A DNA stretch of 64,000 bases from the NCBI GenBank assembly GCA_964016885.1, contig OZ024757.1, forward strand, positions 9,424,001 through 9,488,000, written 5' to 3'. The notes below the pieces were generated by a model. The model worked only from the letters and a program-made list of their open reading frames with translations. It was not told where the DNA came from and did not search any database. The DNA comes from Eledone cirrhosa (lineage: Eukaryota). Positions 55,581 through 59,937 of the stretch are shown in pieces. The number at the start of each line of letters is the position of its first letter. Position 1 is the stretch's first letter. Position numbers and translations under genes: made by a program.

Positions 55581-58500
55581 TAATTGGTCGTTTTGGAAGC
55601 CTCAACAATGTAGATGGGTAAATCTCCTGGCAACAGAATCAGGTGGTAATGAGAGAGATGTAAGGGGAAATGTAGAATGAGACGTATAGGGTGTAGAGGA
55701 ACGTAGGAAAGAGTGTAAAAATAATTATTTCTACTTTTGGCACAAGGCCAGCAATTTCTCAGTACATTACTGGTACTTTATTTTATCGACCCCGCTGTAC
55801 GCATCTTGGGCAAGTCCGTCTGACAGCACTTCCGTGCCTGTAGAGTTTATACCGAACCGGCAGTGCCCCCTGGTAGCACTGCCAAGTGAGGGATTTCTGG
55901 AAATTGTCCATCATCCCCGGCTCGAAAGTCCTCCGGTACAGACTGGTCAGTTCGACTTCGTCGAGGCCCAAAGCTTCTCCGAGTGCGTCATCGCACTTGC
56001 CCACCAATAATCCTCTATTGAACTCGAGAGTGGAAGTTCCACTGATTGCATTGCCCGCTTGGTAGAGGGCAGTGAGTACCGGGCAACATTCCAGGTGCCA
56101 GTCACCCAGTCTCGGTCTCTTCTTGACCCAGGACTGGAGCTCAGTCAAAGAAACGAGCTGCGGAAAGGCCTTTCTGATAAACGGCGACCACAGCTGTTCA
56201 CCGTTTAGGCAGAACATCTAGAGATGTCACAGCCTCAACGCATGTTGCGCATCATTAGCCACGGCATGCCCATCCCTCCGCGTAGAGGGTGCTAGCAGCA
56301 GATGGACCGGCTCACCAACGGAACTTGTCCCCTCCACAAGAATTTGAAGAGGAACCGTTCCAACTTGACGAGGCGCGGACGGGGGCAAGGCACGACGGTC
56401 AGGCGGTAATAGATGACGGACGCGATGTACACATTCGTCACCTCCGCGCGACCTTTCAGTGATAGCTTCCTCCCAGCCCATTTTTGGGTGAGACTGGCTA
56501 CTCTGCTCGTTACCTCGTCCCAATTCTTTTCCACGTGGAGGTCTAGTCCGAACCAAACCCCGAGCAACTTTACCGGTCCGTCCGTCCAGCGCCCCACGAT
56601 ACTGTTGGACGGCATAGGCTTGCGTTTCCAGGTTCCGAACTGCAAGCCCATCGACTTTTCCGGGTTAAGTTTGGCTCCTGTCAACCTTTCATATTCCTTC
56701 AATAAGGTGCCGACCACCTCGATTTCCCAGGTGTCCGACACCATCACGGTGATGTCATCCGCATAAGCCGACACCGGCTTTCCACGTCTCGGTTCGAGCG
56801 GGATGCCCTGCATAAGCTCCAGCTTCCGCAGAAAAGGCTCGAGAGTCAATACGTACAGAAGGGAAGAGAGAGGGCACTCTTGACAGACCGATCGGGAGAG
56901 CCGAAATGGTTCCGAGAGGTGGCCATTAACCTTGACCACTGAGCGTGTGCCGCTGTGCATTGCAGCGATCCAACTTCTGAAGATAGGGCCGAAGCCAGCC
57001 GCTTTGAGGACAAACTCCAGATACCGATGATCGACCGTATCAAATGTTTTCGATTGATCTAAATTGATCAGTACCCCACCGAAGCCAGGTTTAGACCCTA
57101 CCCTCTCTATGATGTATCGCATGAGGTGGAGATTGTCGTGTATGGATCCGCCTCCCCAACCAAATCCTCGACGACAAGCGCCAATCCCTTTGCTAACACC
57201 TTGGCCAAAATCTTAAACTCTGTGTTGAGCAGAGTTATGGGCCTGAAGTTGTCTAATGTATCCCTCTTGTTCTCGTCTTTCCTTATCAGCGTCACCACTC
57301 CCCTGCAAACAGAACTGGGAATACTCCCATTCTGCTGCCAGTTGCTTCGTCTGCGGGGAAGCAACGCATCTGCAAGCCTTCTTCCCTCTGCACAAAAATG
57401 CATGGGTCGCAAACCTCCTTTGTTGCCAACGCCAATGTCAGCACGGAAAGTTGCACCACCACCACCAACAGCAACACCAACAAAGACACGGATACCAACA
57501 TCAAAAACAGCCGGACCACCACCAACACCGAAACCAATCCAAGGGGAAAAAGAGGAAAGCTCCCCCCCCCCCAATTATACACATAGACAATACAATACAC
57601 GCACACACAGACACAGAGATACTCACAGCCACAGACCCTTTGTCTTCCAGCAGCGAAGATGAAGGAAAACCCAAAAGTGACAAAAAACAGAGAAAACTCA
57701 CAAAAAAAAAAAGCCCCAACAAAACACAAAATCATACACAATAAAAAAAAAATACAGACACCACTAACGCAAACACTTCCCCAATAACATCAGCACCAAT
57801 AGCAACATCGACACCACCCCCACCATCCCCGAAACGCAAACTATCTAAACAAACACAAGTATAAATAAACACACAAATACCTGAAATTGCAGACACCACA
57901 TCTACAACAAACATAGACATACCTGAAACAACACCACCAAAACCATCACCACCACACTCACCAAAACGAAAACAAATAAAACCACACCAACAAAATGTTA
58001 AAAACTTCGTGCTTGTCAGAAGGGACAACGAAAACTGATGGCCCTCTTAGCACGAAGCGAGGACATTCAAACAGAGGGGGAGATTTTTGAAATGAGCACA
58101 TTTTGCGTGCCAGAAGATTTGTTTCTGGTCCGAATGTCACACGATTCCTTCAAAGAATTTCGGGAGAGCTTTCCTCAAGACGTGGGAACCCCGAATGTGA
58201 AACCCACATCGAGACTTTTAAAGGGGTTCCCAAAAGAAACCCCACCAACCATGGAGCTTGAACCACCCGACCTTCACAAGACCCCGGGAGGTAAGTAAAC
58301 CTTCCCTCTCTCTTTTAGCTTGCCAACATACCCATATTAAGAGTAGGAAGTTTAAATGTTCGCGGCCTGGAGTCAACCTGGAAGCAGGGTCGCCTGCTCA
58401 ACGACCTCAGGTCGCTGGAAATGGATGTGATTGCCGTCAGCGAGACCATACTTTCCGACACGCGCGCACTAGCCCCCATTTTCGGCGACTATCAGATCTT

Positions 58501-59937
58501 CGCATCTGTTAGCATGCGGGAATGGGAGGTGGGGTGGCAGTGCTGTTTAGGAAAGGACTGGATCTCGAGGTAAAGTCGATCTTCCGGGATCCGGACGGTA
58601 AGTTGGTGGTCTTGGATGTGAACAGTAGCGAAGGTGCCTTTAGACTCCTGGGCGTCTACAGAGCCCGGACGACCGGACTTCTTTAGGCGCCCGGAGACCT
58701 TTCTGGGTACGTCTCGCCCTTTACTGTTAGCGGGGGGACTGGAACGGCATCTTAGACGCACGCTGGGATTGTGTGGGAGTAGCTGATAGGAGCGGGGGGT
58801 GCAAAAGCCTCAAGCACCTAATCAGCCAGTTCCAACTGTCTGACAGGTATCGACTAAATTTCCCCATGCGGTTGGACATGGACCAACCGAATGGGGTCAT
58901 CTAGATCGTATATAGACAGGATCATCTTCATTAGGAAAATAGATAAAAATAGTGTAGGATGCCCACATTTTAAAACGGTCGCCTATTCAGATCACAAATT
59001 TGTGATCTGTATGGTCGACCTAGATAAAACGCGTAGGTTGGGACCGGGTTACTGGAAGCTGAACAAGTCATTTCCGGCACGTAAGGCTTACAGGGACCGA
59101 GTCAACAATTTAGTTAAGCAAAAGTTGACAAGGGGTATCATCAACAACAGATGATGGGGTCTCTCAAAAGAGAGATTAGAGTAACTTCGATAGAGTTCAG
59201 CAAAGAACTAGCGTTAGAGAAAAATAGAAAAGAGGGGGAGCTGGTAGATAAGTTAGACGAGGCTATTTGTCGTGGCATTGCAACTGACGTGCTAGCGGCG
59301 AGAATGGTATTAGACCACTTCTTCAATGCCAAACACGAAGGTTGTATTGTCCGAGCTAAGGCGCGTGCGCTGAGAAACGAGGGAACCAAAGCTGTTCGAT
59401 GGGCCCGCGTGGCGGAGGCGCAGCGTGGTAATAAAACCACAATTCGGTCTTTGGCGGACCGAGACGGATACGAGATAAGCGATTCCAAGCGGGTGTGTGA
59501 GGCCTTACGCCAGCACTTTGCTCGGTTGTTCGGGGAGATTGGCGAGTCAGAGAGAGTAGCGGATTTCATGCCCTACCTAGACGGCTTGCCGCGCATCTCG
59601 ACGGTCGACGCTGAGCGCTGCGAAAGGCCGATTACTTCAGCCGAAATTCAGGACGCCCTTGTCGGCTGCATGAGGCGCAAGTCATCCGGTTTGAATGGCA
59701 TGCCCTACGAGCTTTACGTAAATATGCCAGACTTGTTCTCCGATCTCCTCAAAGAGTGTAAAAATAATAACACGAGATAGAGTTACCTTGGAAGTGGTTT
59801 AATTGTTCATCTACGTTCCTCTACACCCTTACGTCTCATTCTACATTTCCTCTTACATCTCTCTCCTTACCACCTGATTCTGTTACCCGGAGATTTACCC
59901 ATCTGCATTGTTGAGGCTTCCAAAACGACCAATTATA
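55579..59937. mobile_element. ~315-bp foldback/MITE (arms 55579-55706 and 59811-59937) split by a 4-kb retro-insertion
   Basis: ~127-bp inverted arms with about 6 differences; TA-rich flanks. Confidence 0.8.
55726..59750 (-). mobile_element. Chimeric Tx1 copy 3: SINE tail (55726-55794) + Tx1 RT region on minus (55793-57345) + inverted ORF1 end/APE region on plus (57343-59750)
   Basis: 18-bp TSD AAAGAGTGTAAAAATAAT at 55708-55725 and 59751-59768; SAYADD on minus; CFVCGEATHLQAF and VGSLNVRGL on plus. Confidence 0.88.

Follow-up and report, generated by a model that had tools for sequence, protein, structure and literature searches.

A 4-kb insert in the loop of a MITE-like foldback joins the 3' end of an ATT-tailed SINE to the body of a Tx1/L1-type LINE within one target-site duplication. 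It is likely an uncommon variation on known accidents of retrotransposition, and not a new element. The insert probably arose in a single insertion event primed on the SINE tail, since its 3' end and its duplication match the SINE's own insertion signature. The reading that we favour, with a probability of a little under 0.4, is that the insert is a dead, 5'-inverted LINE for which reverse transcription began on a SINE RNA and jumped into a LINE RNA, with twin priming at the 5' side.

Architecture of the insert

The window is the whole stretch of DNA that was analysed, 64 kb in length. The insert and its host foldback are made up as follows.

55578–55707, unstranded: left arm of the MITE-like host foldback, 95% complementary to 59811–59938
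55708–55725, plus strand: target-site duplication at the element's 3' end, an exact 18-mer whose final 6 nt are also the SINE's ATTATT tail
55720–55794, minus strand: 3' 75 nt of a short-form, ATT-tailed SINE, 5'-truncated, 89–93% identical to four window copies
55795–57345, minus strand: Tx1/L1-type ORF2 segment in non-inverted orientation, spanning RT and the first half of the zinc finger, ending in CPRCVQ, with an RVT_1 match
57343–57345, unstranded: inversion junction, 3 nt that fit both halves if an ORF1 knuckle Cys codon is assumed
57343–58336, plus strand: first part of the inverted segment, low-complexity ORF1 sequence that starts at the zinc knuckle and runs to the ORF1 end
58337–59750, plus strand: second part of the inverted segment, ORF2 from the endonuclease to the RT start, ending in MPDLFSDLL
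59751–59768, plus strand: target-site duplication at the element's 5' end, exact 18-mer
59769–59938, unstranded: remainder of the loop, then the right arm of the foldback (the arm itself 59811–59938; contig joint 55721 to 59759)

Three other elements in the window served as comparators.

1–4700, minus strand: Tx1 copy without inversion, represented by its 5' part (ORF1, EN, RT), used for placing both inversion breakpoints
28566–28965, minus strand: 3' UTR of another Tx1 copy, with (ATT)9 and then a 62-nt piece of SINE 3' end in the same orientation
49013–49242, plus strand: SINE of nearly full length whose 19-bp duplication overlaps ATTATT

An earlier note on this DNA had described a perfect 18-bp duplication round the whole 4 kb, and this is what we find: 55708–55725 and 59751–59768 are identical, abut both ends of the insert and form the longest exact repeat common to them. 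The 18-mer occurs twice in the 64-kb window, both times at the insert ends. Among 1500 pairs of random 80-nt segments, two reached a repeat of at least 18, from a region that took in the insert locus, so one of the two may be the 18-bp pair itself. The two foldback arms differ at 6 of 130 alignment columns. Contigs from empty paralogs of the foldback join 55721 directly to 59759 (12 contigs in run X1, 4 in X2, 1 in X4 and 0 in X5 among the joints listed, the longest shorter side being 48 nt), and these joints correspond to a single 18-mer plus one additional 6-nt A-rich unit. The check proposed for the duplication, a single 18-mer in empty foldback copies, was borne out in three of the four runs, in copies that are paralogous and carry the 6-nt length variant.

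The 3' end of the insert is the last ~69 nt of the ATT-tailed SINE and not a Tx1 3' UTR, as had been proposed: 55719–55794 matches the SINE 3' ends of four window copies at 89–93% over 73–76 nt, with 69 nt outside the duplication, 6 nt overlapping it and 3 private changes in 76 (by eye, alignment A1). No ATT repeats follow past the duplication; in this the insert resembles the SINE at 49013–49242, unlike the (ATT)9-bearing Tx1 copy at 28660. SINE 3' pieces are often short, five of the nine window matches that reach the SINE 3' end being at most 78 nt, with two of these five duplicating each other. SINE duplications vary in the window, where one of four long copies has a duplication of at least 8 bp and the copy at 7880–8064 has at most 5 bp relative to an empty paralog; the match between insert and SINE signature therefore rests on one copy, 49013–49242. 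The SINE label for the ATT-tailed element rests on its dispersal, tail and duplication and on a presumed likeness to octopus SINEs; searches for a tRNA-like head gave no ARAGORN or Rfam match.

The LINE body is inverted at its 5' end

The LINE body lies on two strands, 55795–57345 on the minus and 57343–59750 on the plus; it is 5'-inverted, and the simple one-strand Tx1 body of the earlier note, which had overlooked the inversion, has to be given up. By comparison with the copy at 1–4700, the two ORF2 halves lie ~13 nt apart in an intact element. Contigs link 57345 to 59754 across strands in all four runs (13, 13, 2 and 1 contigs among the joints listed). Setting CFVCGEATH of the insert beside CFRCGSKTH of the intact copy suggests that the halves may overlap by 3 nt at the inversion junction. 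An inverted 5' segment within a duplication, together with adjacent breakpoints, is the signature of twin priming. Insertions of L1 with this anatomy were reportedly described as twin-primed, or 5'-inverted, by Ostertag and Kazazian in 2001.

Like twin-primed L1 (Kojima 2010, PMC2912911, in part), the insert has an inverted 5' segment, a short gap between the halves, a putative short overlap at the inversion junction and a long duplication round the whole; the available part of the same paper gives microhomology at the 5' junction for 95% of human inverted L1s. Unlike those L1s, the insert derives from a mollusc Tx1/L1-type LINE, and a SINE tail replaces the LINE's own 3' end. In the accessible portions of the freely readable literature, we found twin priming described for mammalian L1 machinery only, and not for Tx1 or non-mammalian LINEs.

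The non-inverted segment (55795–57345) is 70–82% identical to P0001/P0004, and the nearest solved protein to its ORF2 is human L1 ORF2p (E = 3e-18). It halts at CPRCVQ; the Tx1 copy that ends at 28660 has ~700 nt of 3' end that the insert lacks. On the inverted side, 57343–58336 matches ORF1 of the copy at 2410–4521 by tblastn (E = 1e-5, 21%) and has further copies in contigs, and 58337–59750 is 72% identical in DNA to 950–2362. We find the features of the L1/Tx1 group, namely an APE endonuclease, an RT, a C-terminal zinc finger and an upstream ORF1; the sister copy (72% identical) has Exo_endo_phos and RVT_1 matches, and the copy at 28965–29540 a zf-RVT match. The Tx1 label comes from the earlier note, and no database match to the LINE carried that name; it is consistent with the ORF1 knuckle and with the L1-Tx1 families of Octopus vulgaris, for which such families are listed (PMC13282606). 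Beyond this locus, the chimeric ORF ending in CPRCVQRGR was absent from the protein collection searched, viral contigs held no relative of the LINE protein and 0 matches to the SINE and foldback motifs, and a prokaryote genome collection gave 67 uninformative loci, 43–55% or less identical, and no SINE similarity.

Four stops in 977 codons put the change in the LINE at ~3.7% (95% CI 1–10%). The LINE (~3.7%), the foldback arms (6/130) and the SINE piece (3/76) are aged alike, and the template LINE was therefore not obviously older or dead; the margins of these estimates are too broad to tell a single event from two in close succession.

The SINE/LINE junction

The SINE piece and the LINE are fused directly just after CPRCVQ, two different templates inside one duplication. 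A CG microhomology within the zinc finger had been proposed here, and we reject it because the LINE in register continues with S, G or A and never with R. This holds in seven of seven close relatives, with S in the window Tx1 copy; CG arises only with a 2-nt slip, and the argument for a two-RNA switch that was based on it fails in codon register.

Several other accounts of the joint were tried and rejected. Similarity round the junction is weak, with equal scores at 4–57% of control positions upstream and 26–61% downstream, which does not exceed controls and argues against homology-guided recombination. Both GT and AG are absent at the joint, and splicing is therefore excluded. As a pause site, an RNA hairpin found no backing, predicted folding being no better than that of shuffles (z −0.85 to 0.39); the junction position falls in a small predicted loop in two of four SINE copies. 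Contigs do join SINE tails to other SINEs within 3 nt of the boundary, 55792 to 55719/55720 (direct row: 7 contigs in X1, 11 in X2, 1 in X4 and 2 in X5 among the joints listed). They do not call for a hot spot of jumps at this point of the SINE, as nested insertion and query-end bias explain these SINE–SINE joints equally well. The junction motif had one match in metagenome contigs, a chance hit in unrelated GC-rich DNA.

One SINE-tail-primed event and its alternatives

In the reading that we favour, nicks staggered by 18 bp would have opened the foldback loop, and the DNA end AATAAT would have paired with the SINE's AUUAUU tail. The enzyme would then have copied ~70 nt of SINE before shifting, without in-register microhomology, to the zinc-finger region of a LINE RNA or to the end of one broken there. 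Judging from the anatomy of the insert, the other DNA end would have primed inside the same LINE RNA at the RT start, and its cDNA would have reached back to the zinc knuckle of ORF1; the first cDNA would have ended ~13 nt before the second primer, and the two cDNAs would have joined over ~3 nt. Several observations count against such a jump between two RNAs. In-register microhomology is absent and similarity round the junction is weak, entry deep inside the LINE RNA demands a broken RNA or an internal switch, and at 28566–28660 a SINE piece sits directly behind another Tx1's ATT tail, a layout that serves two alternatives and allows a one-RNA or a two-step route. The earlier note had proposed one event primed on SINE RNA that switched to Tx1 RNA: its single SINE-primed event stands as likely, and its switch between two RNAs is conjectural. 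One RT may have handled both RNAs, as it also held, and would not thereby be identified as Tx1's.

A single event could instead have used one pre-joined RNA, which we regard as unlikely though credible. A donor LINE with a SINE or SINE piece just 3' of it would give a read-through RNA primed on the SINE tail, the intervening 700 nt being skipped in copying or already deleted in the donor, with twin priming after; in a variant, LINE and SINE RNA fragments would be ligated before copying, as ligation is said to precede U6/L1 chimeras in the available part of one report (PMC6789731). One RNA would suffice here, which suits twin priming, and all the duplication and tail evidence is equally compatible. 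The donor layout is indeed present, on the right strand, in a sister subfamily at 28566–28660, but the donor was a different copy from the one at 28660, which has 74% DNA identity and a shorter SINE piece, and no second copy of the SINE/LINE junction occurs within the 64-kb window. Pre-joining by splicing would be at odds with a joint that has no GT or AG.

Two separate steps are rather unlikely. A twin-primed LINE with its own tail would have made the 18-bp duplication, and a SINE would later have landed where that tail met the duplication; either this second insertion or a subsequent deletion would have removed the final 700 nt of the LINE. ATT tracts at LINE ends do receive SINE pieces (28566–28660), and one SINE sits inside another at TAAT (7880 vs. 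20030). The insert's LINE copy has itself lost 22 nt by an internal deletion. One documented L1 chimera lost its 3' end to a later Alu (PMC4476161, in part), and 3.5% of new Alu inserts are atypical, often with deletions (PMC3415434, in part). Known SINE insertions with deletion at a LINE 3' end show, in the accessible text of these two papers, a LINE body and the 3' part of a SINE within an outer duplication that has survived, as here; they differ in being two events, with a LINE-only intermediate expected in relatives. Here, however, the SINE would have to strike the last ATT and leave no LINE tail, and two or three events would be required. The insert's target has 2 ATT units and no long ATT tract, against tracts of 9 and 17 units bordering the other Tx1 copies in the window (n = 2, both of other subfamilies).

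That the SINE came first is very unlikely. It would have made the duplication, which does resemble a SINE's, and LINE cDNA captured at a break would have replaced its 5' 130 nt; the SINE–SINE contig joints within 3 nt of the boundary could mark a nicking site, but they are biased to the end of the query's SINE match, and the end of the replaced stretch would have to coincide, to within one or two bases, with the duplication edge. If the SINE had instead already lain in the zinc finger of the donor LINE, tail pairing would find no ATT or TTA in the LINE within 30 nt of the junction (downstream side taken from the sister copy). An assembly chimera at the SINE/LINE junction is extremely improbable: no independent read crosses 55794/55795 among the contigs listed (15 of 612 joints, 24 of 3804 loose ends and 32 of ~138,000 pieces, from contigs that are short), but misjoins form at shared sequence, of which this junction has none, and the exact duplication, empty foldbacks and adjacent inversion breakpoints all fit biology.

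Comparison with known chimeras

The reverse polarity of the fusion, which the earlier note had pointed out, has partial precedents. In the available parts of the reports, the WEIRD/Mg-SINE chimera (PMC2104539), in which the Mg-SINE is 5'-truncated and a 12-bp duplication encloses the whole, and the U6/Alu and U6atac/Alu chimeras (PMC4476161, which also describes internal entry into U5 RNA) resemble the insert in that one duplication encloses another RNA joined to the 3' part of a SINE; they are explained by template switching from SINE RNA. Their 5' partner, as far as these texts go, is a non-coding RNA whose 3' end was the usual point of entry; that of the insert is a 3'-truncated LINE entered in the zinc finger. 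Alu/LINE-1 chimeras likewise combine a SINE and a LINE in one duplication, with 452 human cases (Law and Burns 2026, PMC13174262, in part), but the catalogue, in its accessible part, has sequences 5' of the LINE-1 3' end, and the insert has the reverse order. Template switching had also been taken as established for U6/L1. This is contested by RNA ligation through RtcB, which in the available portion of Moldovan 2019 (PMC6789731) gives a fused retrocopy without microhomology, as in the insert.

A link between Tx1 and a SINE has been proposed in crocodilians, where the accessible part of Kojima 2015 (PMC4494074) names Tx1 as the partner of SINEU from shared targets. Those targets include a non-autonomous DNA transposon, and the insert likewise lies in a foldback; hundreds of SINEU copies share the target, whereas here there is one copy in one foldback.

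Implications

It is improbable, on present evidence, that the Tx1 enzyme is the SINE's motor, co-loads SINE and LINE RNAs and, with mammal-style twin priming, rescues tail-less LINE RNA by priming on the SINE and jumping. Local similarity between the SINE and the sister Tx1 3' UTR was not above shuffles (p = 0.42 and 0.66); an end-anchored comparison gave p = 0.009 and 0.06, in a test chosen after the match had been seen, and both used the 3' UTR of the sister subfamily and not that of the donor subfamily. Were Tx1 indeed the motor, LINE bodies with SINE tails would recur genome-wide, and a route for exchanging LINE and SINE 3' ends would exist, in the direction in which the LINE gains the tail.

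The insert is one dead copy, and little is changed by it alone. For a Tx1/L1-type LINE in a mollusc, it illustrates twin priming cleanly. SINEs make up 11.6% of the Octopus vulgaris genome (PMC13282606). If fusions of LINE bodies to SINE tails recur, they would identify the enzyme behind the spread of a very common cephalopod SINE, and tail exchange would have been caught in the act.

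Structure of the insert

An exact 18-mer at 55708-55725 and 59751-59768, with no further occurrence in the window, flanks the insert at both ends, so that the single duplication proposed in the earlier note stands. As a control, 1500 pairs of 80-nt windows were drawn at random, and 2 had 18 or more bases in common. A foldback element hosts the 18-mer in its loop; its arms (55578-55707 and 59811-59938) show six differences in 130 columns, or 2.3% per arm. Contigs from public sequencing runs join 55721 to 59759 (12 in X1, four in X2, one in X4 and none in X5, the shorter side spanning at most 48 nt), and the 18-mer is therefore single, not doubled, in other foldback copies. 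The expectation of empty foldbacks with one 18-mer was thus borne out, with an extra 6-nt A-rich unit at the joint; the exact empty form, without this unit, was absent among the 15 joints listed of 612.

On the minus strand, the insert terminates in a 75-nt SINE segment with 89-93% identity to four copies in the window; 69 nt lie outside the duplication, which the terminal ATTATT overlaps. Upstream, a LINE ORF2 ending CPRCVQ abuts this piece, in the order previously proposed (LINE body, then SINE tail). Judged by the copy ending at 28660, the LINE 3' end is short by ~700 nt. The earlier note described a Tx1 LINE body fused to a SINE tail but overlooked the 5' inversion: the body is in two halves on opposite strands.

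55795-57345, minus strand, non-inverted half of the LINE, RT to zinc finger
57343-59750, plus strand, inverted half of the LINE, ORF1 knuckle, endonuclease and start of RT

Mapped onto the non-inverted copy at 1-4700, the plus half stops ~13 nt from where the minus half begins. Cross-strand contigs joining 57345 to 59754 occurred in all four runs (13, 13, 2 and 1 contigs), with X1 and X2 being one sample. Assuming the first Cys codon of the knuckle, the halves overlap by about 3 nt at the inversion junction. Among named proteins, those closest to the LINE product come from Argonauta hians (58-59%), which points to an octopus-like cephalopod; the window as a whole is animal DNA with many retroelements. 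The endonuclease coding region contains a 44-nt imperfect palindrome (86%) at 58977-59020. The names Tx1 and Dong/R4, and the presumed resemblance of the SINE to its octopus counterparts, are provisional labels, some of them from the earlier note. Two opposite, adjacent LINE halves are the anatomy of twin priming, the process behind ~31% of the L1 insertions that arose recently in human and chimpanzee (PMC2912911).

The joint and the age of the parts

A CG microhomology in the zinc finger (CPRC), suggested previously, fits only with a 2-nt slip and was rejected: in register, the residue after Gln is Ser, Gly or Ala in all seven close relatives and Ser in the window copy. The joint is best read from the sequence as probably blunt, after the Gln codon. 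Similarity around it was not above that at control positions, and neither ATT nor TTA, with which a SINE tail could pair, occurs in the LINE within 30 nt of the joint. In the contig rows listed, no sequence bridged this SINE/LINE junction, a result with no bearing either way.

Four stops in 977 codons correspond to ~3.7% change in the LINE (95% CI 1-10%), in agreement with the foldback arms and with the SINE piece (three private changes in 76). At 2-4% change, the 18-bp duplication would survive exactly with a 23-48% chance. The parts are similar in age, which makes one event and two close ones indistinguishable on this measure.

Priming and routes of formation

The insert has zero ATT repeats past the duplication at its 3' end. 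The SINE at 49013-49242 is alike, with a 19-bp duplication beginning ATTATT. The two other Tx1 copies lie next to ATT tracts, one of 9 units and one of 17. Because the insert end resembles this SINE, unlike the Tx1 copies, the evidence from these few copies favours priming on the SINE tail. Duplications of at least 8 bp were found in only one of four long SINE copies, and another has at most 5 bp. Comparison of the SINE and Tx1 3' ends did not demonstrate a shared tail, and the enzyme could therefore come from another LINE family; the RTE, CR1 and Dong-R4 families are all on record with recent activity in Octopus vulgaris (PMC13282606).

All odds for the routes are judgements, not computations. 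We give a probability of roughly 65% to one SINE-tail-primed, twin-primed event. Reverse transcription would have been primed on the SINE tail and then have jumped to a separate LINE RNA, with twin priming in addition; this jump is our leading but unproven, and tentative, proposal. A single event from one pre-joined RNA seems rather unlikely, followed in rank by a two-step history in which a later SINE replaced the LINE 3' end, as recorded for an L1 3' flank deleted by a later Alu (PMC4476161). Both are helped by the layout at 28566-28660, where a 62-nt SINE piece in an ATT tract lies directly behind the 3' UTR of another Tx1, on the same strand. SINE-first routes are improbable, and a SINE pre-inserted at the zinc finger of a donor is at odds with the missing ATT or TTA near the joint. 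We give assembly error almost no weight.

Other repeats

At 28566-28660, the SINE 3' piece separates the Tx1 3' end (minus strand) from the 3' end of a plus-strand LINE, tail to tail; the latter bears a restriction-like endonuclease motif. An array at 4700-28560 is built from two LINE families, taken to be Dong/R4-like, whose C termini carry CxxC/PD-like endonuclease motifs; its full and 5'-truncated copies, 92-98% alike, meet at (AAT)n tracts. A SINE 3' piece immediately precedes the 5' end of two such units (8067-8118 and 20039-20085), reflecting either duplication or target preference. The SINE at 7880-8064, with an empty paralogous site at 19980-20060, entered antisense at TAAT within an older SINE 3' piece (duplication at most 5 bp). 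The two sides of the inverted duplicate 45921-46540/48650-49320 carry unlike SINE variants at corresponding sites: one has a 19-bp duplication, and the other lacks both this duplication and the SINE 5' end. Either gene conversion or two insertions may account for this. Over 55719-55794, many contigs have a SINE tail fused to the interior of another SINE, the fusion point falling at several places. These contigs also reveal a longer version of the SINE, with 31-38 additional bases near 55757; copies in the window are of the short form. A 28-bp unit is tandemly arrayed at 60818-63300 (~90% alike). In a prokaryote genome collection, loci L002-L065 and L067, recorded as 'uncultured Arenicella sp.', are contigs in which L1/Tx1-like LINEs repeat head to tail every 6.4-6.9 kb; this is probably eukaryotic sequence within a bacterial MAG.

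Relation to known chimeras

Template switching, earlier taken as established for U6/L1 chimeras, is contested by RNA ligation as a competing route (PMC6789731). A search of mostly open-access papers found neither a LINE truncated at its 3' end and tailed by a SINE nor twin priming by Tx1. The published set of 452 Alu/LINE-1 chimeras was obtained by screening the regions 5' of LINE-1 (PMC13174262). The SINE as priming partner is already published, in a WEIRD/5'-truncated Mg-SINE chimera within a 12-bp duplication (PMC2104539) and a U6atac/Alu chimera within 14 bp (PMC4476161); internal entry into U5 RNA is also on record (PMC4476161). The insert is real, single and dead, a variant of known retrotransposition accidents.
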